Assembly: GCA_949358305.1 (NCBI GenBank)
Contig: OX442314.1
Coordinates: 1,178,001 to 1,242,000 of the forward strand
Length of the DNA stretch: 64,000 bases
Reading direction: 5' to 3'
From: Strigamia acuminata
Taxonomy: Eukaryota
The position numbers and the translations under genes were made by a program. Positions 1-54,851 of this stretch are shown here, in pieces; the stretch's first letter is position 1, and every line of letters starts with the position of its first letter. The notes below the pieces were generated by a model that made no database searches, was not told where the DNA came from, and saw only the letters and a list, made by a program, of their open reading frames with translations.

Positions 1-17
1 CATACCCAAAGCAAGAA

Positions 18-3000
18 ATGGCAGATAATACTCGAGTAACAGACTCCGACTCAGACGTTAACAAACGAGCCGGTAGTCGCAAAGGAACCGACTATCATTT
101 GAGGTCGGGAGGTCCTTTGCCCAAAGCCTCAGCGCACGAGTCTAGGCAAAAACGCCGCAAGGCCAAGCCAGACCGACGAAGCGCTTCGGAGGCATCGCAC
201 CCGTCTCACGCCGAGACGAGGCAGCGATTAGACGAGACGGAGCGGAGTGAGGATCCGTCCCACCCCAAACCGCCGCGTCCCAGTCGTGACGGTGAGACGA
301 GCGGAAACGAGGTTTTATCCCGTAACCAATCGCCTCGCCTAACGCACGATACCGAGGTGAGCGATCCGAGAGCGACATCTTCGATACAAAGGACGGCGTC
401 CGACACGACAGCGAATTCAGCGCTAAACACGCCAATTACGCCCAGTCGACCAGCCTCGGTAATGTCTGAAGGACACAAGTCCAACTCATCCTCTGTCAAG
501 CGTGTTTCGAGCCAGCCTTACAGCGTCTCGGGCACCTTGATTGATGCGATGCAATTGGCACAGGCGGAAGGAGTGAGATACACCCTTCCGACGGGGAAAA
601 TTACCGTGTACGAAACGTTACAGATCGTACGTGCAGCTTTAAAAGCGCACAGTGTATCCCCACAAATCACCATTGTTGAAGGTGCACACGCTCAACAATT
701 GGTTGATTCCGCTCAATTTGAAGCGGATGCAGAGAACGAGGCTCGACAAGCCATTCGCGAGAGACGGAGGAAGCTGGCGGAAAGAGAAGCGCAAGCTCTC
801 GAGTACGGCAGAACCCAGCCCAATCCGACTACTCCCGAGGAGGTAGAAATAGTTGACCGAGCCCTGAGAGCACATCGATATGCTTTCCACTCGCAACAAG
901 AAGCAGAGCGAGCATTTATGGCCAGATTGCGACGAGATGACCCGAAATCCGTTCGCAAACTAGAGGTCAGTTCATCCGAGCTGTCAGACGAGAGCCTAGA
1001 GGGAGACCCAAAGCGCACGCCGAAGGCCAAACCCAAACCCCAGCCGGAGAGGGCAACACCAGCTACTCCGCGCAAGAGAGATGCGTCGGCCAGAGAACAA
1101 CAAACTCGGCCCCGCATGCAAGCTCTCGATCCAGCCACAAATAATGCGATAACGCGGTTAATCAACGCTAATAATGCTAGGCGAAATGAAGAGCAAACTC
1201 TCACAAGCCAACAGCAAGATAATCCGCAAGGGACTGAGTGGCAACAACCAGTGCCCATCCTTAAAGACGACGAGTCGTCAAGGAGACAATCGCATGATCG
1301 CACCTCTTCGCGAGAAGAAGGCAAACGCGATGAAAGACCGAAATATTTTTACTACGGAAATAGTGATTCGTCGTCAGATGGACTGGAGTCAAATGCACCC
1401 AGTCATCACGATTCGGAGAGAGGTTCCGGAGAAAGACGAAGGGAAAGAGAACGCGATGAACGCAGGGAAAGGGAACGTGGCGACCGTCGTAGGGGCCGGA
1501 AAGAGTCAAACTCTTCACGGCGCAACCCGCCACGCCGCTCACCGTCTCCCGACCCCAGCTCCGACCCCTCATCCAACGACGACAGACGAAAGGATAAATC
1601 AAGTAATCGCCGGAAGAGATCCAACTCTCCGCGCGATAGAGAGAAACGACGTCGATCGGAAAATAGCGACCACCGACGGGAGGAGTTTCAGGACCTTCCC
1701 CGACAAAGCGCGTTTACCGATTCGACGGGTCGGCAGTATACGATGGGAGAGCTTGGAAGAGCACTACTTGGCTCGTTAAAAGCCGAGGGAATCGATCTGA
1801 GCAAACGAAACGATCGTAATCGTAGCACTGGTGACCGCGTAAAGAAAAAATACGCTGTCTCCCGACGTGACACCATGAGTGTTACCGGGAATATTAGGTG
1901 GCAATTTTATATTCAGAACCGTTTCGACGGGTCATGGAAAGCGGGAGATCGCTTCCTTGACGAAGTAATTCGAATTAAGACTGCCACCAAAGCCACCGTA
2001 GGAGACATGCTCACCCACGGTATTGTCGAGCTAATGACAGGCTCGGCACGTGAGTGGTACCAAGGATTGAAAGGCGTCAATTGGGACGACTTTTTAATGA
2101 GATTCGACCTGCGCTACGGCGAGACACCCGAAGAGGTGAGCCGAAAGATGCGAGGTCTTCGCCAGATGCCTGGTGAAACCATAATGGATTACGACATTCG
2201 CGCCAGATTGTTGTTCGAAAAGGCCCCGATGGAATTTCATGCCACGGGATTCAACCTTTTCTTTCTCGGCGGTTTGTCGGAATACTCGCAACGGGTGCTA
2301 CTTGAAGAAAGGGCACCGACAGGAGGCAGCTACGAAGAAATGAGCGCCTTCCTGTTCGAGAACACGATAGATATCGAGAAGAGATATTATTCCGCTTTAC
2401 CAGAAGCGGAGAAAGCAGCGACCGCAAAACGTCTCAAGTTGAGCGCGGAAAGATATGGGGCGACAGATAAGATTATGCGCCCTACTGAATATCTTAGCGG
2501 TATAATGGAGCTGGCAGAAGCTAGCGTTGGTTTACAAATAAAAAATAAACTGACATCCACGCTGCCTTCCAACCCTTTGGCCGCCCCTAAAAAGGCACCG
2601 ACAGCGTCAGCCATGCAAGCGACACTGGAGGAGGTCAAGGAGGGGGAGGAAGCCGGACAAGATGCCGGAAAATCAGACGAAAAAGAAGAAAAAGACGATT
2701 ATTCGACGGACGAAGAAATACGAAGCTATCGCGATACCTTATCAACGGGTTGCGATGAGGAAGGACCGCTAGTACATCTCATCCATCGAGATAGAGCGGT
2801 AGAAGAATTTCGCGCCAGGTTAAAACCAAATGCCGGCCGAATTCCGAAGTATTTTCGAAAAAATTACACGCCACCATCGAAAGCAGACCCTGAAAAGAAA
2901 AAATCGACTGAAGCCCCAAGAGACAAATCAAATATTCGCTGTTTCAAGTGTAACCAACCGGGCCACTACTCCAATGAGTGCCCAAGAACAGCGAAAGAAG

Positions 3001-3101
3001 ACGCTAAGTTTGACGCGATAATGAAGCAGATGGCAGAGATTAAACTCGCCATGGCAAAAAACGAGTCAAAAAACGAGTCAGCGCAGGCGGCGAAGAAATA
3101 A
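18..3101 (+). CDS. gag: Gag of Gypsy 1 (1027 aa; long disordered N-terminus, capsid-like region, CCHC knuckle)
   Basis: CFKCNQPGHYSNEC knuckle; retrotrans-gag-like AREWY...WDDFLMRF...LRQMPGET. Confidence 0.92.
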   Translation: MADNTRVTDSDSDVNKRAGSRKGTDYHLRSGGPLPKASAHESRQKRRKAKPDRRSASEASHPSHAETRQRLDETERSEDPSHPKPPRPSRDGETSGNEVLSRNQSPRLTHDTEVSDPRATSSIQRTASDTTANSALNTPITPSRPASVMSEGHKSNSSSVKRVSSQPYSVSGTLIDAMQLAQAEGVRYTLPTGKITVYETLQIVRAALKAHSVSPQITIVEGAHAQQLVDSAQFEADAENEARQAIRERRRKLAEREAQALEYGRTQPNPTTPEEVEIVDRALRAHRYAFHSQQEAERAFMARLRRDDPKSVRKLEVSSSELSDESLEGDPKRTPKAKPKPQPERATPATPRKRDASAREQQTRPRMQALDPATNNAITRLINANNARRNEEQTLTSQQQDNPQGTEWQQPVPILKDDESSRRQSHDRTSSREEGKRDERPKYFYYGNSDSSSDGLESNAPSHHDSERGSGERRRERERDERRERERGDRRRGRKESNSSRRNPPRRSPSPDPSSDPSSNDDRRKDKSSNRRKRSNSPRDREKRRRSENSDHRREEFQDLPRQSAFTDSTGRQYTMGELGRALLGSLKAEGIDLSKRNDRNRSTGDRVKKKYAVSRRDTMSVTGNIRWQFYIQNRFDGSWKAGDRFLDEVIRIKTATKATVGDMLTHGIVELMTGSAREWYQGLKGVNWDDFLMRFDLRYGETPEEVSRKMRGLRQMPGETIMDYDIRARLLFEKAPMEFHATGFNLFFLGGLSEYSQRVLLEERAPTGGSYEEMSAFLFENTIDIEKRYYSALPEAEKAATAKRLKLSAERYGATDKIMRPTEYLSGIMELAEASVGLQIKNKLTSTLPSNPLAAPKKAPTASAMQATLEEVKEGEEAGQDAGKSDEKEEKDDYSTDEEIRSYRDTLSTGCDEEGPLVHLIHRDRAVEEFRARLKPNAGRIPKYFRKNYTPPSKADPEKKKSTEAPRDKSNIRCFKCNQPGHYSNECPRTAKEDAKFDAIMKQMAEIKLAMAKNESKNESAQAAKK

Positions 3102-3119
3102 TTTCTCGACCGTCTGCGC
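3056..3119 (+). promoter_or_regulatory. -1 ribosomal frameshift signal (two A_AAA_AAC heptamers plus hairpin)
   Basis: Heptamers at 3056-3062 and 3068-3074 in the gag frame; stem GCGCAGGCGG...CCGTCTGCGC at 3081-3119; pol is in the -1 frame and open through this site. Confidence 0.8.
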
Positions 3120-3124
3120 CATTC

Positions 3125-6100
3125 ATGAAGAAAAAGGGGTTTAACAAAGGGTTCGATAAGCCGCCACCAGTCAAAGAAATGGGTAGTGACATAGCTAACG
3201 CCCAAATTCAAGACAGGGCCAACAACGCTTTGCAGGTAATTACCGCAAACGCTGAGGCTGAGGCGGAAGAACCGAACCTACTGCTTGAAGAATTACCTCA
3301 AGTAGTCGAAGACACAGAAGAATTTCGTGTTTTCATGTGCAACGTGGCGGTCGAATACACCAACCGCCTATGCATGTTGCCCATGACAATAGAACGTGAA
3401 AAAATTATGGGACTGCTAGACTCGGGAGCAGATCGCTCGTTCGTTTTCGAAGACATAGTAGCATCATTGGGTCTCACCGATAAGATAAAAGGCATTAATA
3501 AAAATATACGTCTAAAAACCGCCAACGGAATGGCACGTCCAAAAGGAGTTATATTATTGACCATGGAGTGGCTCGGAGGGGTAGAACAGCACCCTTTCCT
3601 GGTCCTGCCCACATGCGACAGAATTTTTCTGTTGGGCTTAGACCTCATGGCGTCAATGGAAATACAACCAAATCCAATAACGAAATCTTGGAATTATATC
3701 AGAAATGATAAGGAAAGACCCGCAATTGTCGTGCCACCAGCTCTTGTAAAAGAAGCGGCCGACAAGACACAGTGGGAAAAAGGCCTAAAGAAATTCGTTC
3801 AAGACTACGATTTTAAAGCATTCGTAACAGAATTGCAACGGGACAATGTAGTGGAAACGCTTGTCGCCGACGCCGCTTTAGAATTAAACGAAGCGGCAGC
3901 CCTACGAAGGGTCCTACTTAAATATGAGGGGATCCTGTCGAAAAAACCGGGCCGAACGAATAGGGCTATTCACGAAATTAAATTGACGGATAATAAACCT
4001 ATACGAGTTGCGTATAAGGGAATGAACCCGCAAAAACGTGAAATAGTGCAAAAAATGTGCCAAGAAATGCTAGACAGTGGCATTGTCTCCGAGGCCCAGG
4101 GAGAATACGCGACGCGAGTTGTGCTCGTGATGCGCCCGGGCTCGGACCCACGCCTATGCATTGATTACCGCCCATTAAACGCGGTGACAGAGATAGATCC
4201 CATACAGATGCCGTCTATCGAATCCATTTTGAGAGAGCTTAGCCCCTTTTCTTGGGTTACGACGATGGATCTGTCGAAGGGATACTGGCAAGTTGAGATG
4301 AGGCCAGAGGATAAGTTAAAAACAGCATTTTACTCGCCAATTGGACGGTTGATGTTCAACGTCATGCCATTTGGTTTAGTGAACGCTCCCAGTACCTTTC
4401 AGAGACTAATCGAAAGCGTATTGGGTGATATCCTGCATCAGTTTGTGTGGGCATACCTAGATGACATAGTTATTGCCTCCAAAACATTCGAAGAGCACAT
4501 TGAGCACATCGACCAAGTGCTCACCCGGCTGGCAAAAGCTGGGTTACACGTGCACCCGGGTAAGAGCAAGTTCTGTCGAAAGGAGCTTGCCTTCCTGGGT
4601 TATCGCATTGGAGTCAATGGTTTAGCTATTGGCCCCGAAAAGATCGATGCGATTAATCGTTTCCCACCACCCGAGGACGTTAAAGGTGTCCAACGGTTTA
4701 TGGGAATGATAAACTTCTTCGGCAGGTTGCTACCGGGTCTAGCTGAAGTGGCAGCCCCAGTTACCGACCTCCTGAAGAATGAAAACGAATTTGTATGGTC
4801 AAGTGAGTGCAACATCGCATTTAATGCGATAAAGAGGATGCTGACGGAAGTCGGCGTAATGCCTCTACCCGACCTAAACCGGCCGTTCATATTACATACG
4901 GACGCCAGCAGAGTTGGGTTGGGAGCCGCGTTGCTTCAAACACACGTGCGCGACGGAGTCGAACAAGACCTGCCGTGCATGTTTATAAGTCGCAAACTCC
5001 AAGGCGCTGAAAAAAATTACAATGCCACAGAGTTGGAGTGATTGGCCGTTGTGTGGGCCATAAGGAAATTCAGAGATTAGTGAGTTTGCGGTTGCCAATT
5101 GTTCCTTATAATTATGAGTTACAAGCTCATAATTATAATTGTAATTCCTTCTTGAAATAGGCACTTGCGGTACAATAAATATTTTATAAATTATACTTAT
5201 AAATACCATGTGAACAGTACAAATCTCTTGCATGTAATGGTAGAACAAATCCATATGCAAAAGAAAATGAAAATCTGTAGTTTTACTAATTTGACAGTTT
5301 TCAGACATGAAATTGTCTTCCAGTTCATTTATTTGCTTACCTGGAATGATTTTAGTTGTTTCTATCCTTCGATGGCAGAAAGAAATTGTGATTGAGGCTG
5401 ATTGTTGAAACAGGTCAGGCAGCCATTTTGAATTTCTATTAGCACCATCAGCGCCATTTGCAATAGTGGGAGGAGCTTAAAATAGTGTTAAGCGATCTGA
5501 TTGGCTCCCTTATTTTACAAAATAGTGTAAAAATTGAGGAGTTACGTTATGTTATAAGTCCAATTTTATAATTATGAGCTTGTAACTCATAATTATAAGG
5601 AACAATTGGCAACCGCAAACTCACTATTATCTCGAATATACCAAATTTGTGGTCCACACAGATCATCAAGCGTTACAATGGCTGATGAAATTAAAGGAGC
5701 CAGCCGGTCGACTAGCCAGATGGCAGTTAGAACTGATGGCATGCGACTTGACCATTCAATACAAGCCCGGCAAATATAACGTCGTGGCTGACGCTCTGTC
5801 ACGGGCACCAGTGTCAGATCCAATCGACGCTGACGATGATGGCGAGGATGACTCCCGCATCATTTATTGCCCTACGAGTTGTCACCGTTGGGATTTAAGG
5901 AAAATGAATGAAATTCCCACCGCGTCTCCGGCAGACGTAAAATTCTGTGGATTCTGGACGCGATTATACCAACCAGCTGCTGACAATTACCCAAATGCAA
6001 AGAAGGAATTTAAGCTAGAGCGGAGAATAAATGACCCGCTTCTAAGCGCCTTCCACGCTCGTGTCGGCAAGCAAATGAAAAGCAATCCCCCAACAAGGGA

Positions 6101-9100
6101 GGAAATAATTGTGCAACAAAAATTAGACAAAAAATGTCAGGACAGAGCTAGATTCGTACTGACAGGAAAATATCCGCCCAACTTAACCAGAAGGCAGAAG
6201 CGTCGTTATGCACACGAATCCATAGATTACCTATTGGATGACGGCCTTTTGGTGAAACATCACCCAAATCACCAAGATGACTTGAGTGAATCGGACACCG
6301 CAGTAAAGGTAGTAATACCTGCTTCCTTAATCGGTCGCGTGCTGTGGTTGTTACACGGGCACCCGCTTGCGAGCCATGCGGGAGTAAGCAGAACACTCTA
6401 TCGTGCTACACAGCTTTTTCACTGGACAGGGATGAAAAAAGATATTGCTCTTTTTGTCCACCAATGTCAGCGATGTCAAGCGTGCAAGCCGAAGAGTAAA
6501 TCACCATTCGAAACTATTTTCTTAGGGCCTTACGCGCCTTTTGATTGTTTAAGTGTCGATGTGATGGGCCCAAAACCCGTTACGGGAAATAAAAATGCGT
6601 ACATTATCGTAATAATGGACGTGGCGACTCGTTGGCCCGAGTTGTACGCCGTCGCTAGACCTTCAGCAGAGAAAATCGTTGAATGTATCTACGACGTGGC
6701 GTTACGTTACAAAATTCCACGTAAAATAATATCCGATAACGGACCCCAATTTATCTCGAAAATTTGGGGTAAGTTTTGTAAAAAATTCGGGATTGTGGCG
6801 TCACATACTTCGACCTACAATCCTAGAACAAATCCCGTTGAGCGACTCAACAGGGATATCAAATATGCATTAAGTATATTCACTGACATCCACAATAGGT
6901 GGGATGAATACTTGAGGGAGATCGCGTTCAGCATACGAACAACAGTCTCGAGGACGAGAGATTTTTCTCCGGCCTACCTCAACTTCGCCCGAGAGCTACG
7001 AGTGCCTTGGGACCCACGAGTGGCAGAGTCGGTAAATGTGGTGGACCCAGAGAAACCACATGAGTATGTGTATAAATTGGAGCAAACAATTTCGAGCACA
7101 TACAAACATATGATGGCGCACATTTTTAACATGCGCGACCGCATTTTACAAGATAAAAGCGGTGGAAAATTCGTGAATTTCGAGATCAATGATTTGGTGT
7201 GGAAAGATGCACACACCCTCTCAAATGCAGCGAGAGGAATCACCGCCAGCTTGGCCGACAGGAGAGATGGTCCGTATGTGATCATCGACAAGCATGGCGA
7301 TAACGCGTATAAACTACGTAAGCTCGAGGACAATACCGAGCATAAGTCGATACAAGTACGAGAGTTAACTCCGTACATTCCGGAATTCCCGCAAGAACTG
7401 TGGGCCAAGGGCCAAGTCAAGTCTAAAACTGACGGCCAAATCGTCGATATGTTCGCTGGCGAGTCGGAAAAAGCACCGCCAAGTGACAACGAGGAGTATT
7501 TCGACGCCCCTTCACCTCTGGTAAACGAGATAGTTGAATCCGTTCCGGATCCAATTTTGGTCGGGGGGGAAACAGGAGAAACTCCTGAAACAAACACAAA
7601 AAACACGGATAAAAAAGAAAGCAATAATGAGGAGGTACAGACACAAAAAACAACAAAAAATATCGTACCCGTCTCAGCACATCACCTGCGGCCTCGTAGA
7701 AGTAATCCGTTTATAAAAGACGGAAAGGTGTGCAAGGAAGTTTGGATGTCTGGCGACGAAGAGCGAGTCTCTCGTCCCAGCGCTTCTAGACGTCCGCTGA
7801 CTCATCGCGAGCAGCGGAAAAGAGATCGCAAGGAGCGATACTTCGCGAGGTGCGAAGCTCGGGGCCGTCCCATCCCCGAACCCGCCTACATCTCCAAAAG
7901 AGCGGGTCGACGAAGTGGTAGCCAGTCAGGTGAGCGAAACGTCCCAGCGGCAGATACGCGGGACCTTCGCGAGATTCTGACTCAGATGAAGCGGACGAAA
8001 CTGACACGTTTCGATCCCGCAATGAAACACGCCAGGAAGATGGGTGTTGTCACCGACGGAATGGTGACCCCACACGAGGTGGCAAGGTGGCTCGCAGACT
8101 ACATAAATTCGCGACCGCGACCCGATGGCATGCCAACCGCCATCGTACAGCCCTCAGGCTCCGGACAACATCTCCCGGCGCCCCAAGTCGCAATGACTGG
8201 GGTGCAGACGACGGAGACGCCACCGCCGCCGACGCAGCCACCACCACCGCTGCCGACGCCAACGCTGCCGACCAAGACGCAGCCGCCTCCGAACCTGCCG
8301 CCGCCGTCGTTGCTGAATTCGAGCGATCCGCCGGATTTACCCACCGACCGCTCAGTCCTTCTCCCCGTTGGACAGAGCATTATGCAGGAATGTCGAGCCA
8401 ACTTGACCGACATTTACAGACCGAGCCGACCCCGACCCGGTTCCTCGGCCCTGTTCTTCGAGAGGCGAGACGAAGAAGCGCGACTCGCGAGAGAAGCCGC
8501 CAACCCGACTATCTCCGAGCTCTCAGCGTTTCGTTTCGTGATGGAAGACCCAAGAGTCTCCGCGCCCGCCTTGCGAGGTGTGGATCAAACACAGCGATAT
8601 TTTATCGAATGGGCAACCGCGATGATGAGTAAGCTCTCGCGTGCCTTCACTGCGGATTCAGAGCGATCGAATCCAGTGAATCGTCGCAGCCTACAGCTAT
8701 CATTGACCAAGGTCATGATGCAGCTGCTAACCCCAGCACTCTTCGGAGAAGGGCGTCAGGCGATGGCCGCATGGTCTGTCGTGGACAGAGAGGGTGTACA
8801 GGTTCCCCGTGCACTCCTCGCAGAGTGGAGCTCCATTCTGCCCGACCCTGTGTTGACTCGCTACGAGCTAACCAGGGATGTGGTAAACCCAGAATTTGAA
8901 GGGTACAAGTTGCGAAGCACGGCATTTCGTTACACCTCCGCCACCTGGACAGCGGCGCCTACCCAACAACTGTGCGCCTTGACCATCCAGACGGAGGAAT
9001 CGGCAGAGGATGTAGACATGGTGATCTCGCCGACGAGCGGAGTTCCGATTCCGCCACCGATGCCTGCGGAGATATCCCCGCAAGGACCCGCCCTATTCGA

Positions 9101-9719
9101 AGTGGCGGGTAAACCAAAGCGCTTGCTGTGCCGAACGCCACCCGTCAGGTCCGTCGAGCAAACGAAGCCGACACCGCCCGGGACCCCGCCGGCCCGAGCG
9201 GCGACAACAACGCAAGCAGTGATTCCCGCGGCCACCCAAAAGCCGAAGCCGGCACCGCCTCCACCAGACTATTATGGGCGAATCATCGACGAGTTTCCCC
9301 ATCTTTCGATGACGACGGCGACCAGGAGGTTTATCCTCGCGCAGCGGGACAAAGGCAAATCAGTCTTTATCTGGCTTCACAACCAGATACGGAAGACTAA
9401 AGACCTCATCTTCCACCAGAGGTTGCTGAGAGCCCACCGTGCGCCAGTGACGCCAGCGGAAGCCAATGCCATCCGGCATACGAACACCGGCTTCTCCGCC
9501 TACATCCCGAGCGTTTGGTTACACGAGAGGACGCGTGCCCCGCATGAGCCAGTTGACGGCCATGCATTATGTTTCATTACGGAGCATGAGGACCCCCGTG
9601 ATCGGTCCTCGGCGCTAGTAGGCGATCTACCCGCGCCACCCGGCACTCAACCGCCTGTCCCTGGAGTGAGTTACGCCCAGGTGACGGACTCAGTGTCGGG
9701 TCCCCCAGAAAAGAAGTAA
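3125..9719 (+). pseudogene. pol: pol of Gypsy 1 (PR, RT, RNase H, IN) with an in-frame ~650-aa C-terminal extension; disrupted by TGA at 5039-5041 and a MITE at 5079-5625
   Basis: LLDSGA, YLDD, HTDAS, ELE*LAVVWA; removing the MITE restores KFRDYLEYTKFVVHTDHQ; HHCC, SDNGPQF and GPY motifs. Confidence 0.9.
5079..5625. mobile_element. MITE, internal-deletion derivative of the PIF/Harbinger-superfamily element at 51688-55091
   Basis: ~60-bp TIRs AGTGAGTTTGCGGTTGCCAATT...; ATT TSD at 5076-5078 and 5626-5628; interior matches the left ~130 bp and the right-end region of the long element. Confidence 0.93.
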
Positions 9720-9755
9720 TCGCTCAGCCCCACGGTCTGAGCTCGGAGGGGGAGG

Positions 9756-10769
9756 TGTTGTGACCCGACTGGACCGGGGTCAACGAAGAGTTTCTCTCGT
9801 GACCTCGTTTCGGGTGTAAGGGGAGCCGCAAGCGCGTCTCCCTTCCCTCAGTGCATTGACATCTAGTCAATGGACAGGCGTCTGCCCTGAGGGAGTGGGG
9901 ATGGCTCGTCCACCCCACCATTGGGTGATTCCGGTCACCTGTCAACCCCGCTTTGTGCAAAGGAATGTGCCTTGCACTGAGCGGGCAGAACCAACACAAC
10001 CATCAAACGAGAAACACACGTAAACCCGTCGTCCTACAAGATCAGGCCCAAGTAAATATACTGGGATTGACCAAGGACAAAGGACAATTTACCGTGAGTA
10101 CGTTTGGTCAGTGTCAAACTCCGCAGAGTAACCTGCGAGATCAGATTACCACACTATTTTAGCACTCCAGCTAGAAATAGTAAAAACCACTCCAGTTTAG
10201 CGAGTTGTGCAGACAAACGGTCGCACAAGCCTAAACTGCAGTAAACCAACGACGAGTGTTCCCGCCGCTGTGTGACCGCCAGGAGCCAGAAGAGTCCGCC
10301 GCTGTGTGATCGCCGGACACCACACAAAAACCTAGACAACAGACTGAAGTAAGCCTTTTAACTAAGCATTCACTCGCGCCTGACCAGCGTGAGCCCGAAG
10401 GACCAGCCAGAGACGAGTCGAGGACGCCATATTGCCACGCCGGCCCAAGACGACACCACGTTGCCACAACGAGGACGCCATCTTGGACGCAAACGAGACA
10501 AAGGACGACCTCGCCGATTCCAGCCAGCTTTCATCTTACCTTTACCTTTCCATTCCCATCCCCCATTCCGATTTACCTTTTTCTTACCTTTCATATATAT
10601 ATATAAGATATATCTGTACATTGTCCCACAGAATAAATCTATATTATATTTTACCTTTTATATCTGTGTAATCATTTCTTTGGGTAAACCGCTCGAACAA
10701 AGCGGTAGTGAGTTAGTCGAATTAAGTAATCAACCCACGAGTCAGCAAGAGCGAAGTAGGGGCGCGACA
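9756..10769 (+). repeat. 3' LTR of Gypsy 1 (~1014 bp)
   Basis: Starts TGTTG directly after the PPT, ends GCGACA, AATAAA near 10632; partner LTR is not in the window. Confidence 0.7.
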
Positions 10770-10960
10770 AAGTCAACTTGAGTTTGGAGCTCTTTCCGGA
10801 GGCTGATCCCGAATACCTGCGATCTTTTGTCGAGCATTAGTCGATTACATCATGGCGGTCTAGTGGTCTGGTGGTCTGGTGGTTGGCGAAATCGCTCGTA
10901 TCCCAGGTTGGCCGAAGCCCAAAAGGCGGCGACTAAAAGGAATTTATAGAAAGGTTTTAT
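10770..10960 (+). pseudogene. Decayed duplicate of the exon-2 3' end of the RNF216-like gene
   Basis: Matches ~12462-12650 (GAGCTCTTTCCGGA.GCTGATCCCGAATACCTGCG; TCGTATCCCA.GTTGGCCGAAGC.CAAAAGGCGGCG) with indels and stops. Confidence 0.8.
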
Positions 10961-11643: not shown

Positions 11644-14600
11644 ATGAAAAAGGTTAAATTTTTTAAATCCGGCCACAGCAGCGACGATGACGACGAAGAC
11701 GGAGCCGATGACACCACCGACGACGATGACAACGAAGACGAAGACGGAGACGGAGACAACGACGACATTTCGTACTTTCCCGGGATGATAGCAGTTCCGC
11801 CTGCGCCACACGACGCAGTTGAAGAAAACAGCGACGACGACGACGACAACATAGCGAACCGTCCGTACCTTCCTGGTATGATCGCCGTTACTCCCGTGCC
11901 ACAGCACACGGTTGAAGTAAACGACATCACAGAAGTATTTCGTCCTAAATTAATCTAAACTATCAAACAAAATAATTAAAATGGAATTAATTTGTATGTA
12001 GGATGTGAATTATATCATTAACGGGCTTCGAGTGGTTCACCCGAACTTCTTGGTGGATCGGAACGAAGTTTATGCGATGGTTGGAGCCGTGGATCCGAAT
12101 CCCAACAGAAGAAACATCGTAATCCATCGGTTGATCACCAAATGGCTGGAGCAACCCGCACAAGCGCCGTTGCGCATCCCGGAAGAAAAACAACCGAACA
12201 AGTTCAACGATTTGATCAACGATGTTGAGGTCGTGAGCAGATTCGTCCCGAACAAGAGCCGGGAGGAAATCCTCGCGTATCTGGAGGCGCATCACGGGAA
12301 TGCAAACCGGGTGCGCGTAGTCATCGGCGAGTTGCTCGATATGAAGGGGATGGCGTCGTCTCCAGTGACGAATGAAGCCCCGAATTCCGGGAATAACGGG
12401 CCGGAAGCAATCGCGTCCTCTTCGACGGAAAAGAATAACAATGTGTCGGCGACGATGGAAAAAGTCAACTTGATTTCAGAGCTCTTTCCGGACGCTGATC
12501 CCGAATACCTGCGCACTTTTTTGGAGAGATGGAAGAACGATGTGAATTACATAAACGCGACGGTTAACGGGTGGTTGGAAAGTCGTTCGTATCCCAAGTT
12601 GGCCGAAGCTCAAAAGGCGGCGGTCAAGCGGAAATTTGTCGAAAGGTTTTCTACTTATTTTGTCCATGTTATTTCGTTTTTAGTGTTTCTACGAACAAAC
12701 CGTTTTTAATGGCTTTTTCATGATTTGTCGTTGTTTGTATTGATTTTTGTCATCATTTTGCACTGAATTTGTTTTGCAGCAAGTTCAGCGTTGAGGAATT
12801 CCTGGAGATGTTCCCAGACCCGGAGAACTACTTCAAAAACAACGACCGAGTCGTGAGTGCGTCGTACAGGTTGCACGTTGAATGCTTCGTCAGTAACCAG
12901 TTCCGATACGCGTACAAAAACGATTTGACGCAAGTGATGGAGAAACACCGTTTCCACCTCACGCCCATCATGAAAGAGATGAATGCGCTCTGGAACGTTT
13001 CGCCCACTGACGGTGAATTCATCAAACAAATAATTAACAAATTGTGACTACCCAGTCTGATCAAGGGCAACCAAGGGTCAAGATACCCTGGGGTGGGACG
13101 CATGCTCACGTAAATAAAGACAAGAGACTCCAGATTGTTGGGTTTGGTGACCTTTAATCCGTTGTCTAGTGGTTGGAGATCTACCGTCTAACTGGCCAAT
13201 ATTTTGGTCATAAATTTCTTTTAATGATGAGGTTATTGTTGTTTTATTTACTTTATTTTAGCATTATTAAGTCTAATATTAGGCTTAATACTACTAAATA
13301 ACAAGTGGAATTAGAAAGTCGCCTGCGCAGAATGGGATGCGCAGTAGGAATTTAGCATCAAGATACCGGGCTTACCACGCGGTTATTGGGCAGTGTGTGT
13401 CAGTGACACTTTGTACCTTTGGGTGGAAACAAAATAATCAACTTACTTGATTAATTCGATTAATTACAGAACCATTAATCAAGAAAAGGAGGGAGAACTT
13501 GAGGAAAAAGAAGGTGAGGAGTCCCTTGAAATTGATGCCGCAACAAATCGACGAACTCTTTTACAAAGAGAAGTTGTTTATCGAGATGGAAGACAGGATC
13601 ATTCGTACAGTTTAGAAAGCAAAAATCGTGTCGTGCAATTACGAGTCATTTCTTTTCTAGAATACAAGAAGGACAAGGAGGCGGAACGTCTGAGTAAAAT
13701 CGAAGTGGCGAAGGCCAACGACGAACTGATGGAGTGCAGTTGCTGCTTCGAGGACGAAGTGCTCTTGGAGGACATGCTGCAGTGCACGGACGGGCACTTG
13801 TTCTGCAGATCGTGCATCCGGCGCCACGCCGAGGTGCACATCGGCCAGGGCAATTACCACTTCCCGTGCCTCGACCCGTACTGCGAACGCGAGTTCCCGC
13901 CCGTCGTCCTGCAGAGTGTTTTACCACCCAATGTGTTTTCTAACGTCGTACGCAAGATGCAGGAGGAGGAGATCCGGCGCGCCGACATCCCGGATCTCGA
14001 GTCGTGTCCTCACTGCTCGTTCTGCGCCATCATTCCGGACGCGGACCTCAAGATCTTCCGCTGCCTCAACCCGGAATGTCTCAAAGTGACGTGCAGGTGA
14101 CGTAGAAATGAAAAAAGGAATAAATGAAATGCTAATTTAGTTTATGAATGAAGGTTGTGCAAGGAACCGAACCACCTCCCGCTGCGCTGCGACGAGATTG
14201 AGCAGAAACCGGAAGTGCAGTTCCGCACCTACGTAGAGGACCAGATGACGGACGCGTTGGTGCGCACGTGTCCCAAATGCAAGCGGCCCATCGTTAAAGA
14301 ACACGGCTGCAACAAAATGACGTGCACGTGCGGCCAGATCTTCTGCTACGTGTGTCGCGAGGCCATCAAGGACTACACGCATTTCGACAACGGAAAGTGA
14401 GTTAATGATTCAAATGGAATGCCAATTAATGAATTAATGCAACTTCAGGTGTCCCAAATTCTCGAACGACGCCGAAATGCATCGGCTGGAGGTAGAGGAG
14501 GGCGCCAAGAAGGCGAAACAAGAGTACATCGAGTCCCATCCGGAAGCGCAGGCGGTCGAGCTGCGCCACGACCCGACCAAAACACCGTTCGCGGCCGTGC

Positions 14601-15016
14601 AGAAGTCCCAGCAACAGTGCGCGCAGGGCTTCATGCCCATGGTCAACGAGCGTGGCCAAATCGCCTTCCAGCGACTCATGCAGCAGCAGCAAGCCCAAGC
14701 CCAACGGATGGCCGCCGCCAACGCCAATGCCAATGCCATTATCCGACCAGTACAACCTGCGCCGAGGAATCCGCCCAGGCCTCCGCCCAGACTCCCGCCC
14801 AGGGCCTTGCCCAGGACCATGCCCATGCTCTTGCCCAGACCCCCGCCGAGGGCCTTGCCAAGGCTTCCGCTCTGGCCTCTGCTCAGGCCTCCGCCCAGGA
14901 CCCTGCCCGTGCTCCCGCCCAGACCCCCACCGAGAACTCTGCTCAGGCCGGTTGCACCAGCGACACAAGCGGCGGACAACGCAGGTACTCGTCGTTTCGT
15001 TCGTGCGTCCAATTAA
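11644..15016 (+). CDS. RNF216: RNF216/TRIAD3-like RBR E3 ubiquitin ligase; predicted exons 11644-11934, 12002-12645, 12780-13012, 13470-13604, 13661-14096, 14154-14396, 14449-15016 (~849 aa; 3' end may splice further)
   Basis: All introns GT-AG and phase-consistent; CUE-like ELFPDADPEYL; RING1 CSCC...CTDGHLFCRSC...CLDPYC; IBR CPHC...CLNPEC...CRLCKEPNH; RING2 CPKC...GCNKMTCTCGQIFCYVC. Confidence 0.85.
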
Positions 15017-25050: not shown

Positions 25051-26229
25051 ATGGAAGAATATCCAGCCGGCACTCGAGTCGTATGCCCAGTGTGTTTAGG
25101 AAGTTGCGTAACCGAACGCAACAACGGCGCGTTAACTCCGTGCGAAAACTGTCTTGGCGAAGGACATGTGGATCGCAACGAGCCTTTGGAACTCTGGTTC
25201 CGTCATTTTATGACGGTATCCGGACGCCCGATTCCAGTAAGAAACCGCGTGGTCGGTTGGATGCGAGTGCGTTCTCGTAGAGAAAGAAAGAAGTCAGAAA
25301 AGGCGTTTTACGCCAATTCCGGCGCCTCGACTTCGGCCCAATCGCCACGAACGGGATCAAATCCCAATTCCACGTCAAAAGCTGACGATACAACGACTGG
25401 ACGAGTTTCAAAAAGAGCGGTTTTACGCTTGAAACTAGCCGAATTTGCGGCGAATCGTTCGCAAACGTCGCAGACACCGAAAACTTCAACTTCGAGTTCG
25501 ACTAAAATCCTTCGACCACCGAAGAAAGTGACTGTAAAACAGTCATGTTCGACGGTGACAGAATCGAAAGCCAAACCACGCTCTGAGATTTCGGCGGCCC
25601 TCGTCGCAATGCGACTAAAGATCCGCGAACGAAATCCAAAGATGGCGGAAGAGACAGTAAACGCTTTAGCCAAAGAACGTCTCAAGTGGGAGAAGGTCGC
25701 TGATTATAAACAGCGACAAGCCGCCCTCGCCGTGAGCCAACGAGTGACCGCTACGGTTACGTCATGTACGCAAGCGGCGAAGAAATCAATCCCACCACCG
25801 TCGTGTACGATCGTCTCAAACGATACGAGCATGCCGACGGAATTCGTTTGTTCCTCGACTGTTTTACAGTCAATTCCAAATCCAGCGGTCATTATGCCGC
25901 CGATATTCGGCGAGAGACCAACGGACATTTCATTTCAGAATCTCCAGACCGCTCCGATGTCAATCGAAAATGGCGCGGCCGCCACCGAGACCGTCGCCGA
26001 AGCATCGAGTGCGATGGAAACCGAAGAATCGCATACGCCTCCGCCGCCTCTTCCACCACAATCGAAGGCAGAGAAGGCGGAGAAGAAGGCGGAAAAGAAA
26101 ACCAGATCCGCCGCGAAGCGAGAGCAAAAGACGCGTCGTAACCTGGCGAAGGAGCTGCCGTCGATAAAAGAGAACGAACGTGACGACGACGAGACGCCAC
26201 CGACGCCCGGCAAGACGCTACAGATATAG
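25051..26229 (+). CDS. ORF3 of Gypsy 2, unknown function; N-terminal CxxCxGx...CxxCxGxG zinc motif, basic and low-complexity remainder
   Basis: 392-aa ATG-initiated ORF between pol and PPT; no signal peptide or TM segment visible. Confidence 0.75.
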   Translation: MEEYPAGTRVVCPVCLGSCVTERNNGALTPCENCLGEGHVDRNEPLELWFRHFMTVSGRPIPVRNRVVGWMRVRSRRERKKSEKAFYANSGASTSAQSPRTGSNPNSTSKADDTTTGRVSKRAVLRLKLAEFAANRSQTSQTPKTSTSSSTKILRPPKKVTVKQSCSTVTESKAKPRSEISAALVAMRLKIRERNPKMAEETVNALAKERLKWEKVADYKQRQAALAVSQRVTATVTSCTQAAKKSIPPPSCTIVSNDTSMPTEFVCSSTVLQSIPNPAVIMPPIFGERPTDISFQNLQTAPMSIENGAAATETVAEASSAMETEESHTPPPPLPPQSKAEKAEKKAEKKTRSAAKREQKTRRNLAKELPSIKENERDDDETPPTPGKTLQI

Positions 26230-44300: not shown

Positions 44301-45249
44301 TACGGATGCGTCCTTCGCATTAGACCAGGACAAACGTCGAAGCTTTGGTGGGCACATCATCTACCTGGGAGGTGTCCCAATCTCATGGAACTGCCATAAG
44401 CAGACCATTACAGCACTTTCCATTATGGAAAGCGAATTTTTGGCGGTGGTCGATGGTGTAAAGGAGATAATTTGGTTGGAGCGCATATTTGGTGCGGATG
44501 TGATGATGGATGGGCTCAACCGGGAAATACCATGTGTTTACGCTGATTCAATGCCAGCGATCCAATATGCGAAGAATCGCATAGAAAATCGCGCAAACAA
44601 ACATATTGACGTTAAGTTGCATTTCGTGCGCGACTGGTTTGAAAAAGGTGTTTTTCGAATCAGACATATCCCGGGAACCCTTAATGTAGCCGACCTTATG
44701 ACCAAGTGGCTATCTCGCGCAAAACTAGATGCATTGTGCGAGCATATTTTTGTAGCGGCAAAGTAGTTCATCGAAGGGGGATTTGTTCGTTTGCGATGAA
44801 TTATTTGCGATAATCATATTTGTTGTGCATTTCCGAGTAGGCACAATAAGCGCGTTACTTCATATATTGGTACGAATGGTCAGCCAGTTGATTCTGCTTT
44901 TTAAACTACGCTTGTTTCGTACTCCAACTGGCTGTGTCTATGTGATAACGCGCGTCCCGTCGTCTGCTTGTTAAGCGATGATCGTTTAATTTGGTTTGGT
45001 ATTGTTTATCCATTACTTTAGTCTTTACGTTGTATTATTGTAAAGAATAAATCTATTTGGTTATACTAATAGATTTGTTCTCGTTGTTACTCTGTAACCT
45101 TAGTTGAGATCAAATAGCCTCAACCCAGATCACTTGTTTTTATGCTTTCATGGTGAATAAAGATGGCGGTCGCGTGTTGCGAACTAACCGCACTTTATAA
45201 TCGGTTTGCAAGTTATTTCCGCATGCTCCAGGTCCAAATACGCTCTTCA
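38334..45249 (+). mobile_element. Complete Ty1/Copia element B with MBD-like domain (potentially active)
   Basis: 466-bp LTRs 38334-38799 and 44784-45249 with one mismatch seen (position 5); AGTGT TSD; tRNA-iMet PBS TGGTAGCAGAGGAT at 38802; PPT GAAGGGGGA. Confidence 0.96.
39922..44766 (+). CDS. Copia B Gag-Pol polyprotein (Gag, CCHC, PR, IN, MBD-like, RT, RNase H), intact
   Basis: CYNCGGTNHFAREC, WYVDTGA, WHSRMGH, TDNGGEF, RARLVAQGF, YVDD, YTDAS, KHIDV; MBD-like segment at ~43000-43180. Confidence 0.95.
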   Translation: MASWDRRDDYKDVEKLNGTNYSTWSVQIQLLLQSYGVWGHVTGKEKPLPATASAKEVREFDKREEKARSTICLACGKAQQVVAVAHEGAKEVWEALKAAYQPTTRARKARLRREFLMLKLHEQEEMMVFLARVDRKALELKDVKIDISDEFLAFQYLDLLPHQYETVKQTVYHWGDPEFTSKAVKERLLGEYNRLYEQTDEFGVSLGTIENTGAYFTKGRWQRGRGGNAPSSPRVCYNCGGTNHFARECSSPPKQQQGATRGNPTGQFSRGSQRGKSRGKSQQTANVTQMDIFGNSPVSYFSAAICQEQPPVVVSLLSHANYDSQWYVDTGATDHFSFNKTWFSDFKPLTGYSVQQGDGKSKIEGIGNVTLVSINGQQTRELTLKNVYYAPNFKKNLISLGRTDEAGATTIVKNGKMFIYDVTIDDPSITAIRTSDRMYKVNCRINAKNSVNTVALSAQQSATVASSPPLAGEEIVKSLLTHVDFRTALTQNLSKSGKPVPARKGQAKTANTAPAIVANNASMEISNQQSSVLTDTQSSLVASKGNKPKDAKILRTIVQNNLTNGNGVVNGKNASIKPDKPQTMDIWHSRMGHLNAKGIALLNKSTEVFGLKLSNTELSSCDACSRAKSTRASFPPIATISTKGILEIVHLDVWGPSPVKSIGGAYYYLVMVDDFSRLMWIVIMKKKSEVLGHFKKWLTEIERTTSRKVKSIKTDNGGEFVSKQWDEYAGSIGLKCMRTNAYSPEMNSIAERTNRTILGGIRALMIENSLPSSLWAELAVSVVYLKNRFPHAGLGGRTPYNVFFNKKLSLRHVKCIGALTYVHIPSQTRAGKLQERAWAGALVGYASSTRGYRIWDPNKNQVFLSKHVKILEQNFWYEKVKNPQSGPSPATDDSDLSGEESCNDSDTDSVYSEPIPEEEVKVVEKLVERPIQARPPGGPDYVDAMQYIIGDIHGLNFDEIGGAKGDDRDFFNIYPDDDEGEVEEEVEDPDASPQLSPQSSPTPPRRNPPRKGKDTGERTASTSDLLPLDMTLWQRRQTVRQSGATAGKVDVWYITPKHEKLRSRVEVVRWCKAEGYEYKSELFNFKDVTIGFAGCCSVEPDTYEEAVKGASKPDWENAMEDEINIFKEREVYVEVDKDQVKDKTLLGSKWIYKLKRDHTGTIRRYRARLVAQGFKQKPGIDFTEVFSPVVNFVLVMMFFCVLVVLRGWRDVHLDIKAAYLYGDLDEVQYIHIPKGYRTTENQHKCWELRKSLYGLHQSGRMWYQRLHDQLIEIGFEPVLGLNCVYSLGTDAILIFYVDDIVLFSKDNIAEECVLDWIQQSFEIVNLGPVTLLLGIEFCRDGENIFIHQRAYIAKLCKQYGIDSCHRVRVPGTPGTMIQKVQTGERVNSSFPYRSLVGSLLFIASRTRPDILFSVIVLSQYNETHSTRHVNMLLQILRYLGNTPNFSINLGNCQSENLTVYTDASFALDQDKRRSFGGHIIYLGGVPISWNCHKQTITALSIMESEFLAVVDGVKEIIWLERIFGADVMMDGLNREIPCVYADSMPAIQYAKNRIENRANKHIDVKLHFVRDWFEKGVFRIRHIPGTLNVADLMTKWLSRAKLDALCEHIFVAAK

Positions 45250-48200
45250 AGTGTCACATTCCTTTGTTTGAATGTTCTCCAGTAAATGGGCGTACTGCCC
45301 AGTGTTATTAACGTTCCTCCAACGGAGATCCTGTCGTCTCTGTTGTTCGCGTAATCGGAGTCGCTGTACCCAATTATCTCGATCCGATTACTGGGGAACA
45401 ACATTAATCCATGACTTCTTGTTGTTCTCAGATAACTGAGTAGGTCCAGTAACGCAATCCAGTGATCCCATCCCGGATTCGATTGAAATTGGCTTAAGAT
45501 GTTAACCGCATAAGTCATGTCGGGCCTTGTTCTCGACGCGATAAAAGCCAGACATCCAAGTAAGCTTCGATATGGAATTCCTTCCATAATTTTGAATTCA
45601 TCGATCGTAGTCGGACAATCTTGTTTTGTGAGGATAGTTGCTTTCGTCATTGGTTGAGATCGAATTTTCACGTGTTCGAGGTGGTTCTTGAACTTCAACA
45701 ATACTTTGTTCACGTATGATCTTTGGTGAAGAATTAATTGTTGTTTGTATGAATGAAATTCTACTCCCAACAACTTCTTTGTTTGTCCGAGGATCACCAG
45801 GTCAAATTGCGTTCCGATCATATTGAGTATTTGCACCGCATGTTCGTGCTGCTTTCCGAAAACTACAATATCGTCAACGTAGACGATTAGATACGCGATA
45901 TCTCCGTACTTATAAACGCAATTGCACCAATTCACGTGCTCAAGTCCTAGTTTCAATAAAGTTTCCTCCAGTTCTATGCCCCATTCTCTTCCAGATTGGT
46001 GCAGTCCGTATATGGCTCGGAGGAGCTTGCAGACATAGTTCTCCTTGCCTTCGGAAATGAAACCTTTTGGCTGACGCATGTAGACAGTTTTATGCAATTT
46101 TGCGTAAAGATACGCACACTTGACGTCAGCTTGAATGTAAGACCATTTGAGCATACAAACGAGTAGCGTGAACATGAAGCGCACGATTGAAAAGTCCACC
46201 ACGGGTGAGAATGTCTCCTCATACGACTCGCCGTAGACTTGGAAGAAACCTTGCGCGACAAGTCTCGCCTTATAACGTGCGATTTCCCCCTCTTCATTCT
46301 GTTTGGTCGTATAAATCCATCTACAACCCACTATCTTAGTGTTGGGCGGTGGTGGAACGAGTTCCCAAACCTCGCGCTCATGCATGGTGTCTATCGCGTC
46401 GTTCATCGCTTGGCGCCATTCATTTCTTTCGGGTAAAGTCGCAATTTCCTCATAACGCACGGGTACGTAGACTTCTAGGTGATTGGCTTCGAAGTTGATA
46501 TTCATATCATCAAAGTCCACGTCAAGACTATCTGTCGTCGTATTCGATTCTGAGGGCTTTTTCTTCCTTTTGTCCTCAAACAGATGCTCAGGAACACGAA
46601 GATTGTGGTCGGCACAGTAACGCTTCACGTCAGGTATTGAGCGTAATTTGGGTTTGTCATAACCCTGGATCGTGTACTCGACATCCTTCTGTCCAGTTGG
46701 CCTGATCTTTTCTGTTTTCTTCCAAACTAGTGCAGGAATAGTTGGAACTGGATTCAAAAGTCCTTGTCCAGGTTGTGGCAAAGTGCCTTGCAACTTCACT
46801 TCTGGTCTAACATTTGGCAAATTGGTTTGAAGTTTCTCTTCAGGCAATCTAAACTTCAATTTGACTTGAGGTAATTCCAGTTGTGGGTCCTCTTCCTTCT
46901 TGACTGGTACTGGCGGGGGTAGTGGCGGCCTGACATCTTCATCCGAATAATATTGGCGCTCATTGTCATTATCTAAATTGTCGTCCAAATTATCGATGTA
47001 AGTCGTGTACTTTTCTGGTAAGCCCAGCACGCCTTCAACTCCGCGCCTGCTTTCTACGAACTTGACATCGCTTGTCTCGATTACTTTGGAAAATACTCGA
47101 TATCCTTTCGTGATTCTCGAATACCCGAGCATAATGCCATGCAGACTCTTGTTATCGATCTTGCCATCTCGAATTCTTTTCTGCACAAAGCATAAACTCC
47201 CGAATTTCCTCAAATGTCTAAGTGATGGTTTCCGTCCGTAGTACAATTCCATTGGCGTCTTGTCCGAATTCAGCTTTGCGATCCTGTTCCTGAGGTAGTT
47301 GAACGTCAGGATGGCTTCTCCCCAGAATCGATGTTCCAAGCCGGCATCGTAGACAAGCGCTCGCATCCCATTTGCTAATGTCTGGTTAAGTCTTTCGGAA
47401 ACGCCATTTTGGACAGGAGTGTACGCGTTAGTCCTTTCGTGGGCGATTCCTAGACCTTGGAGATACTCTCCAAACTTGTTTGAGCAGAACTCCATACCGT
47501 TATCCGTACGAATTGCGAGAACCGATTTCCCGAGCAATCGTTCTATTCGTTTCACGTGTTTTTGGAAAATGTCAAATACTTCGTCCTTCTTCTTCATTAA
47601 GTAGACTGTGGAATAACGAGAGAAGTCGTCCGTGATAGTTAAGAAGTATATGTTTCCCGAGAGTGTTGGTGTGCTAAATGCTCCACATACATCCATGTGT
47701 AGCAATTAGAGTGGCTCTGTCGATCTAATTCCTGGCAATGACTTATGAGAAATCGCTTTCTTCTTGGCTAATGTGCAAACATCGCATTGTGTGATTGGCA
47801 CATCCAAAATTGGCAATCCAATTACTGCACCTCTTTTGCTCATTGCTTGCACGCTTGGAAAATAGATGTGTCCGAGCCGCTCATGCCAAAGTCTTGCTTC
47901 CTCAGGATTAGACGCGCTCTTTGTTGTACTCTGTGTTGAAATAGTTGGCTCTTGTTTCTTTTGTTCGCCAACGTTCGCCTTGTTCTTCGCTTTTTGTCGT
48001 AACTTGTCAAAGTCTGGCTTCTGGTCGCTTAGTTTGATATAATATAAACGATCCTTCTTCACGCCTTCCATCAGCTGTCTCTTCCACTGAGGATCGTATA
48101 TCTTGACCAGTCCGGAGCCAACGGCGACTTTGCATCGTGCTTCGTCGATGCACGGTCCCGACAATAAATTTCTTCGCATGTCCGGCGCATAATAGACTTT

Positions 48201-49370
48201 CTTCAATGTGATTGGAATTGTCTCACTTCCAACCAAACACATCACGCAAACGTCCTCGACGCCCTGAATTTGAATCAAAGTTTTCTTATCCGCTTGACTT
48301 ATTGTCCCTGTGGTTTCCTTGAAGTTAAAGAATTGGTTCCTGTCTTTGCAGAAATGTCCAGTGGCCCCGGTGTCGTAGATCCAACAGTTGTTGGCTGCGC
48401 TGCACTGCAACATTTCTTCCTCGCTCAATTCGGTGAGAAAACCGACATCGAACATGTTTGTGTCCAATTCTTCCGCCGTATTTGTGTTCTGGCTGTTATT
48501 CGACGGTAATTGTGCTGTGCAATCCCTCGCCCAGTGGCCTGGTTGATTGCACCGGAAACACGGCCCCCGTGGTGATGATCCGGTCGTATTTCCTCTGAAA
48601 TTCCGCGAATTTTTGCCGCCTCGATAATTCGATTTGCCGCCCCTTTGTCCGCCTCGGCTGTTTTGGCTGCTGTTCCCTTGCTGTTGTTGGGATTTAGACG
48701 AATTGTCACTGTTCTTAGCGTTGGGGGAACTTGTTCCCATGTTGAATGCGTCCACAATTGGTCCTTGACCCAAATTCCTTCTTTGTTGCGCGAGTCTGCC
48801 CTCTTCGGCGACCAATTCTGCTTCAACTTTTTCCAACGTGAAGTCCTTATCCTCCCATCGATAAATGCTTTGAACAATGGACTGGTACTCTTGTGGCAGG
48901 TATCGAATGAGCTGAAACGCCTGATACAAGTTGTCTAAATCGTGTTTGACGTTGGCTAGTCGCTTCGCCGCATTGCGTATCTTCGCCGCGAATACGCCGA
49001 TCGTTTCCGTCGTCGGATCGTATTTAAGGCTGAAAAATTCGTCCAGCAGACGTATTATCCTCGCCCTCGAGACCGGTTTGAAGTTGGTTTTCAGCGTGTC
49101 CCACGCTGTTTTCGCATCCTCGGTCCCGCTGAGCAATTCGTGATATTGCTCTTCAATGGCGTAATAAATTAGGCTGAATGCTCGTCCCTTCCGTAGTTGA
49201 TAATCCGAACGATCTCGCCAAGATGCTCCCGGTGCCAGCGCTTCTTGTGTCCCGTCAGTGAATGCCCAACATCCGTGATGCATCAACAGCACTTTGATTT
49301 GCTGTTTCCAAGTGTCATAGTTTGTTCTGTTCAAAAGTGTTATTTTCCTTTCCGGTTTGTCCGTATCCAT
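45250..49370 (-). pseudogene. Copia A Gag-Pol with a premature TAA at 47706-47708
   Basis: CFRCNQPGHWARDC, WIYDTGA, WHERLGH, EPL*LLHMDVCG, TDNGMEF, KARLVAQGF, YVDD; MBD-like segment at ~46578-46730. Confidence 0.92.
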
Positions 49371-50055
49371 TGTGATTTAGGAAAACAATCTCTTCAAACT
49401 GCACACACACACACTTTTTCAGCAAAAACACTTTCAAAACGGTTACTCGTGAAAAATAGTGCAATTTCCACGAGGTTAGTGCGCTCTTAAGATTATGTTA
49501 GTGTCAATCCTATCACAGCACTAATCTAACAATTATATCAACAATATATTCCAAATAAATATCAATATCGATTATAAACAAAAGTTCTAGTCTTCTTGTG
49601 TTGTTTTCTCCTCGTTTTAGTGTCTTTTTCGCCTCGAAAATTCGTCCATTAAACTTTTCCGCGTCTTTCCAATCGTTTTTCGTCCGCAGCTCGTTCACAC
49701 TTCCCGTGTGGTTGCCGAGAGTCGTCGTCGTTACGTCTTCCTCGTTGAGTCGTTTTCTCGACGAAAGAATCAACGACACGTTGACAAAACGTATCGCGCC
49801 TCGCGATATTCGGAAAAATTGTCCGAAAATTGGAAAATTGAACTTATTAATGAAAAGTTTCGTAATGTTCGAACCCATTTATTGTTCCTGCGTCACTTGA
49901 TGGCCAATAATCGCTTGTTAAACCGTGGATGCTTGGCTGAGACACAGGTTGCTTCCATTCCTCATGGGCGCCGCCATCTTGGATTTGGAGGAGAAACGCC
50001 CTCTTTTTCACCTGTGGTTGACTTGGATTGTTTTTCAGTCACTCTGCACGTTTTA

Positions 50056-51687: not shown

Positions 51688-51854
51688 AGTGAGTTTGCGG
51701 TTGCCAATTAATCCTTATAATTATGAGTTACAAATTATGAGTTATAAAAATGGACTTATAACATAACTTGCGGTACAAGTATAAATTATACTTATAAATA
51801 CCATGTGATCACACCATGTGACCACCACAAGTCACATTACATCATCAAACCAAA

Positions 51855-54508: not shown

Positions 54509-54851
54509 TATTATTGCTGACAGTACAATTCCTTCACATGTAATGGAAGAACAAATCCCTATGCAAAAGAAAATAAAAATCTGTAATTTTACTAATTTGT
54601 CAGTTTTCAGACATGAAATTCTCTTCCAGTTTATTTATTTGCCTACCTGGAATGATTTTAGTTGTTTCTATCCTTTGATGACAGAAAGAAATTGTGTTTG
54701 AGACTGAATGTTGAAATAGGTCAGGCAGCCATTTTGAATTTCCATCAGCACTATCAGCGCCATTTGCAATTGTGGGAGGAGCTTCAAATAGTGTTAAGCG
54801 ATCTGATTGGCTCCCTTATTTTATAAAATAGTGTAAAAGTTGAGGAGTTAC

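Follow-up and report, generated by a model that had tools for sequence, protein, structure and literature searches.

A separate orphan ORF3 in a Ty3/Gypsy retrotransposon, probably joined in frame to integrase by a deletion in one copy

The window, that is, the whole stretch of 64,000 nucleotides analyzed here, holds a copy of an LTR retrotransposon (Gypsy 1) whose integrase reads without a stop into a further 657 codons. The question is whether this extension is a natural part of Pol or a gene of its own to which one copy has become joined. Comparison with other copies of the family in the same organism suggests that the extension, ORF3, is a third frame apart from pol, and that the in-frame join is likely a deletion private to the window copy or to a few copies like it (probability about 0.85).

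The open frame is present as it was first described, running through ATG 7746 (MSGDEE) to 9719, just before the polypurine tract. In the ORF listing of the window, positions 5586-9719 (+) form a single stop-free frame of 1377 aa, in which the C-terminal half of RNase H, an H2C2 zinc finger, the rve core, a Tf2-type SH3/GPY module and a tail follow each other. The RNase H half and the integrase, with an acidic disordered tail that ends in HLRPRR, occupy 5627-7729 (+). ORF3 is placed at 7716-9719 (+), with 657 codons from ATG 7746 and the stop codon at 9717-9719; its true start probably lies upstream, in a part lost from this copy. The end of ORF3 is 25 nt from the polypurine tract (9745-9755, +), which is followed by the 3' LTR (9759-10769, +; TG...CA, AATAAA at 10632), whose ends are putative, the 5' LTR lying outside the window. 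Contig depth and a loose end at 10746 fall within this LTR stretch. ORF3 is also GC-richer than pol, as had been noticed, with GC 0.60 against 0.46 and GC3 0.64 against 0.48 in the RNase H-integrase (RH-IN) part. At the base composition of ORF3, the chance of 657 stop-free codons is about 1e-9, and the remaining five frames over it contain 11-31 stops each.

Other copies were examined as Logan contigs of four public runs (X1-X4, from three studies) of the same organism, which were mapped onto 4800-10900 and more narrowly onto 7590-7880; the run that best matches the element may derive from the sample behind the window. Thousands of short contigs cover the wider stretch at high depth, as a high-copy family would give. 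On 7590-7880, 283 contigs were placed, and none of the 26 listed crosses 7716-7729. In the same listed set, contigs on the integrase side leave the window sequence at 7727-7729 or earlier, and contigs on the ORF3 side join it no earlier than 7716, preceded by other letters. Loose ends behind 7729 were found in 4/4 runs, one X3 contig continuing for 127 other letters, and loose ends before 7716 in 3/4 runs, with 19, 68, and 83 other letters; 8 more loose ends lie outside those listed. Depth is zero from 7730 on in X4. The X3 depth of bin 7730-7739 is fully accounted for by the contig joining at 7716 and by contigs starting at 7737, with no depth left over for a bridging contig. Read by eye, the loose ends printed behind 7729 carry an in-frame pol stop in 4/4 runs, two kinds of stop codon being represented. 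For X2 and X3, the ORF3 frame has no stop in the 30 letters printed before 7716. No contig in the four runs spans the whole spacer between integrase and ORF3, and the intact layout is pieced together from its two ends. In addition, X1, X2, and X3 contain contigs that join ORF3 only at 7736-7743, with other letters before; they represent a sister subfamily in which the 5' region of ORF3 has diverged.

These results bear directly on the first-pass annotation, which had considered the gene to be either naturally fused to Pol or an accessory gene other than Env that had lost its spacer. In other copies, contigs from 4/4 runs leave at 7729 and show a stop in the pol frame between integrase and ORF3, so the fusion is not family-wide and the first option is not supported. 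The second is supported, as the contigs of other copies separate at the shared 14 nt. Both junction ends indicate that in other copies ORF3 is a sense ORF of its own, lying between pol stop and polypurine tract, an arrangement that the window copy lacks; an integrase-ORF3 in-frame fusion common to the family was not found. A minority of fused copies may have been missed in X1 or X2, because Logan contigs drop rare variants and 26 of the 283 pieces are listed. The start proposed at 7746 stood in part: the ATG is present, but it is doubtful as the true start, since in other copies the open frame extends further upstream, and it may code for a methionine inside the protein.

The 14 nt at 7716-7729 (+) are common to the integrase-side and ORF3-side contigs of other copies, and are probably the remnant of two direct repeats. 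For a given pair of breakpoints, 14 nt would be identical by chance with a probability of about 1e-8. Since the other copies diverge on both sides of these 14 nt and a stop follows, the window copy has most likely deleted the pol stop and the spacer. The deletion would have taken place between the two 14-nt direct repeats, through a template switch in reverse transcription or through microhomology repair. The loss would comprise the pol stop, a spacer of some 127 nt or more, and probably the splice acceptor or opening codons of ORF3. Landing in frame would be a 1-in-3 chance, with selection not needed. The integrase with its 650-aa extension is most likely a scar in a dead copy, and this locus illustrates clearly how a deletion between short repeats can look like a domain fusion.

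By its layout, with gag followed by a pol ordered protease (PR), RT, RH, and IN, the carrier is a Ty3/Gypsy LTR retrotransposon. The GPY/F (SH3-like) module behind the integrase core matches PF24626 at E 6.6e-5, below the Pfam curated cut-off, and its motif aligns with that of Gypsy 2, a second element in the window. The gag ORF (3-3101, +) contains Retrotrans_gag and a CCHC knuckle and is open at the 5' edge of the window; its part at 3-1850 (+) is a very long Arg/Ser/Asp-rich N-terminal region, with more than 600 aa upstream of Retrotrans_gag, and its capsid part had no PDB match. The 5' part of pol (3044-5041, +) codes for protease, RT, and the first half of RNase H. The pol of the window copy is broken twice in RNase H, which the first-pass annotation had missed: a stop codon at 5039-5041 ends the frame prematurely, and a non-coding element of about 550 nt with terminal inverted repeats (~5076-5626, no strand given) has been inserted. 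X3 and X1 contigs skip this element, with joints at 5075/5626 and 5076/5628. Its terminal inverted repeats are long, and related ends at 51683-51767 and 54520-55107 enclose two ORFs, a Harbinger-type DDE ORF (52133-52978, DDE_Tnp_4) and, on the opposite strand, another at 53123-53983; tandem 80-nt end repeats lie at 54852-55097. Downstream of Gypsy 1, at 12002-15016 (+), are exons of a host RNF216-like RBR ligase with a CUE domain. By eye, the sequence just after 10770, where the Gypsy 1 LTR ends, looks like the CUE-coding part, and Gypsy 1 may sit inside a duplicated piece of this host gene.

Differences among copies give a thin signal of selection on ORF3. Of the 20 differences listed within it, 14 are third-position changes (p 0.0009 against an expected 1/3), although four of these, at 7781-7790, trace to a single minor subfamily. 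The wider mapping (4800-10900), for which 38 of 281 differences were listed, gave 9/15 at third positions on its own (p 0.03), all nine synonymous. The same count in RH-IN gave only 4/12. Of 23 indels, 12 were listed; 11 of these are in the LTR and none lies inside ORF3. One X3 contig of 724 nt over the 3' part of ORF3 has 21 differences and no gap, while another contig has an 18-nt gap. Low-depth contigs with deletions inside ORF3 were also found, with skips of 450, 100, and 37 nt; the first, at 8270-8721, is a multiple of three, is seen at low depth in three runs, and represents an internally deleted ORF3 variant. Taken together, these counts, which fall short of a true dN/dS, suggest that ORF3 is probably a selected gene of the family.

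The protein has the outline that was noticed from the sequence, with an Arg-rich N-terminal part, poly-Pro linkers, and two ordered-looking blocks. An Arg/Lys-rich cluster at aa 20-35 (7803-7850, +), with 7 K/R in 12 residues, is NLS-like or RNA-binding-like by composition only, and a short helical stretch is found at aa 65-125. Proline makes up 13% of ORF3, with 18 P in aa 161-200, and there are one PPxY motif (PPDY, aa 506-509), 19 PxxP, and 10 S/T-P sites. The two blocks are richer in hydrophobic residues. Block 1 (aa 255-400; 8508-8945, +) is predicted, at low confidence, to be mainly helical, and block 2 (aa 508-615; 9267-9590, +), which begins inside the PPDY motif, to be alpha/beta, also at low confidence; their single-sequence AlphaFold models reached mean pLDDT of 43 and 44. 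Foldseek with these two low-confidence models returned nothing at E <=0.001. In VIA-align, the best result was Z 7.3 for block 1 (rmsd 3.3, 78 aligned, generic helical bundles) and Z 4.1 for block 2 (rmsd 4.1, 89 aligned, RsfS/MALSU1-like rows), both within background. A SWIB-like look of aa 95-122 was set aside, as Pfam did not support it. The view that Env features are missing also held: no stretch qualifies as a membrane segment (hydropathy over 19 residues peaks at 1.07), and the 5 Cys in 657 aa are scattered at 36, 216, 410, 462, and 609. Env was rejected as a candidate on the same figures, with no C-terminal TM anchor and no Cys-rich ectodomain. No signal peptide follows ATG 7746, the true 5' end being probably missing in the window copy.

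No homologue of ORF3 was found in any collection searched. Pfam gave only noise (E 0.03-0.17), with no profile match to a GDSL or DEDDy enzyme beyond noise at E up to 1 or 10. The 5.8-billion word-indexed search confirmed 0 of 7987 scored candidates, of lengths 361-1150 only, and an exhaustive phmmer search found 0 of 1.84 billion representative proteins. PDB sequences gave a single noise match (E 0.52), the Atlas gave no usable match to aa 200-420 or 500-625, and 0 of 54 pattern matches in metagenome contigs were confirmed. The integrase was also used as bait: 56 relatives (best 37-39% identity) have no ORF3-like tail, and a metagenome scan yielded 73 distant loci, with 18-47% identity in the best segment, in none of which tblastn (E <=0.5) matched either Gypsy 1 ORF3 or Gypsy 2 ORF3. 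The literature searched, which left Repbase and most subscription journals outside its scope, held no account of ORF3 or of such a fusion, and the available sections of PMC2774666 and PMC13535231 contain nothing specific to it. From these searches, ORF3 appears to be a new orphan among the non-env ORF3 accessory genes, a class already known.

The functions that can be proposed are alternatives within the same anatomy, a separate ORF3 and a private deletion. In intact copies, ORF3 would likely yield a soluble protein, translated from a message that is spliced or subgenomic. It may enter the nucleus through its basic N-terminal part and act in trans on the RNA or expression of the element itself, in the manner of Rev or CERV, while its two folded blocks, carried by proline-rich linkers, may mediate interactions or the formation of oligomers. 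A soluble, nuclear, RNA-binding regulator of the element's own RNA or expression is our best guess, and a tentative one, because it draws on composition and analogy only, with no homologue and no confident model. In a broader form, which is possible at well under even odds, ORF3 would be a new family with two undescribed domains, perhaps captured from the host, with a Rev/CERV-like or anti-silencing role in an env-less lineage that has an unrelated regulator in each family.

A separate ORF3 might instead counter host silencing or act as an adaptor to host proteins, and it may have been captured from the host; we regard this as somewhat unlikely. The 19 PxxP and 10 S/T-P sites suggest an adaptor or phospho-regulated linkers. 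For capture, the GC3 of ORF3 (0.64) is near that of the neighboring RNF216-like exons (0.65-0.73) and unlike that of gag and pol (0.48-0.51), with host LRR genes in between (0.55-0.58). This host-like GC3 is a weak hint of capture from the host; composition alone, however, does not establish origin, and no host-like homologue was found in the protein, Pfam, PDB, and Atlas searches.

It is doubtful that ORF3 aids particle exit or germ-line reach without an envelope, through late-domain-like motifs. PPxY motifs recruit Nedd4-type ligases in retroviral budding, and ORF3 both occupies the env slot and has one PPxY in a proline run. However, one such motif is expected by chance at 13% proline, no membrane segment is present, and ORF3 lies outside the size and TM limits given for sORF2/FAST proteins in the available sections of their description (bioRxiv 2025.03.14.642691).

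Even less probable is that ORF3 is a non-functional GC-rich passenger sequence, or that the junction is an assembly error. GC-rich DNA does have fewer stops, no homologue was found anywhere searched, and the junction rests on assembled sequence without raw reads. Against this, the open frame is far longer than the estimated chance would allow (about 1e-9), the differences favor third positions with no listed frameshifts, and ORF3 is present in 4/4 runs of the organism; a repeat of 14 nt is also shorter than usual assembly word lengths, which counts against an assembly error. Least probable of all is a natural fusion in which the 657 aa would be a Pol targeting or accessory module, as the chromodomain is in chromoviruses, for although the window shows an open frame over the junction, the other copies in 4/4 runs leave at 7729 and stop, the junction bears the 14-nt repeat, 0/56 integrase relatives carry similar sequence, and a pol broken upstream could not have made the fused polyprotein.

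A separate ORF3 is also the arrangement of Gypsy 2 in the same window, where the pol stop at 24807 is followed by a 243-nt spacer and then by ORF3. The latter (25051-26229, +; 392 aa) has an N-terminal CxxC...CxxC pair (weak DnaJ_CXXCXGXG match, E 0.03) followed by a basic stretch, and a search with its N-terminal part (aa 1-230) found no homologue among 1295 candidates. The two ORF3s are not alignable, the best E being 0.12 in low-complexity sequence. The first-pass annotation had suggested a lineage with a variable 3' cargo slot, and a separate, unalignable ORF3 in Gypsy 2 is compatible with this but does not establish it. The integrases of the two elements are only 36% identical, and family-specific non-env ORF3s have already been described (PMC5408684).

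Several other elements were observed in the window. At about 56860-60900 (-), two identical 300-nt repeats 3715 nt apart surround a 900-aa gag ORF (57783-60485) with Retrotrans_gag and a zinc knuckle and with no room for pol, which is likely a young non-autonomous gag-only element. The region 34747-56262 contains nested elements, with Bel/Pao-type pieces between repeats at 34747 and 55963. Reading of the ORFs gave Copia-like labels to an ORF of 1626 aa that lies between repeats at 38319 and 44769, and to a second element on the minus strand at 45213-49376.

Among known systems, chromoviruses have extra sequence, the chromodomain, fused C-terminal to integrase, and the chromodomain PF00385 was detected on two of the integrase relatives (P0032 and P0035). 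The window copy resembles them in having extra in-frame sequence behind the GPY/F module. Unlike in the chromovirus fusions, the join to ORF3 is not common to other copies, and no chromodomain was detected in it. ORF3 shares some features with the additional ORFs of plant Tat/Retand elements, which are long, lie between pol and the 3' LTR, are possibly regulatory, and have no TM in the available sections of the source (PMC11963269). However, Retand ORFs are mostly antisense, have a TRP28 domain, and occur in flowering plants, whereas ORF3 is sense and has no Pfam match (PMC11963269). The sORF2/FAST-like proteins are likewise non-env accessory ORFs, located downstream of pol in some Lepidoptera elements, but with 60-210 aa, one TM, and a myristoylation motif they were rejected as a match for ORF3, which has at least 657 aa and no TM (bioRxiv 2025.03.14.642691).

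CERV of the C. elegans element Cer1 is a non-env nuclear gRNA-export factor with a shown role (PMC10309623). Like ORF3, it is an accessory protein of an animal Gypsy element, and at about 517 aa it has folded domains, flexible linkers, and, in the available sections, no recognized RNA-binding motif (PMC10309623). The cluster at aa 20-35 of ORF3 is, by composition only, a candidate basic NLS or Arg-rich motif like those of CERV and Rev. Features described for CERV only are an N-terminal part shared with Gag, a spliced mRNA, a Cys-rich loop, and a G-protein-like domain (PMC10309623). The Cys-rich loop was not found in ORF3, whose 5 Cys are scattered, with its missing 5' part unseen. No sequence or fold link between the two proteins was found, and the putative likeness is in role only.

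A further parallel in arrangement is in the LTR retrotransposons of bdelloid rotifers (Juno, Vesta, TelKA), which have family-specific non-env ORF3s that are reported to be typically expressed from spliced messages, and in which microhomology-mediated deletions yield partial copies (PMC5408684). Gypsy 1 ORF3 is similar to these: it too belongs to a Ty3/Gypsy element of an animal, reads in the sense direction, lies between pol and the 3' LTR, and differs between families (PMC5408684). In contrast to the rotifer proteins reported in the available sections, which include GDSL, DEDDy, coiled-coil, TM, and fusion proteins, it has no Pfam match and no TM (PMC5408684). Orphan ORF3s are a class already described, and the one found here is large, family-wide, and without a relative in the databases searched. 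If a role is found for it, ORF3 would become one of the few accessory proteins of animal retrotransposons whose job is known, alongside Env, sORF2, and CERV.
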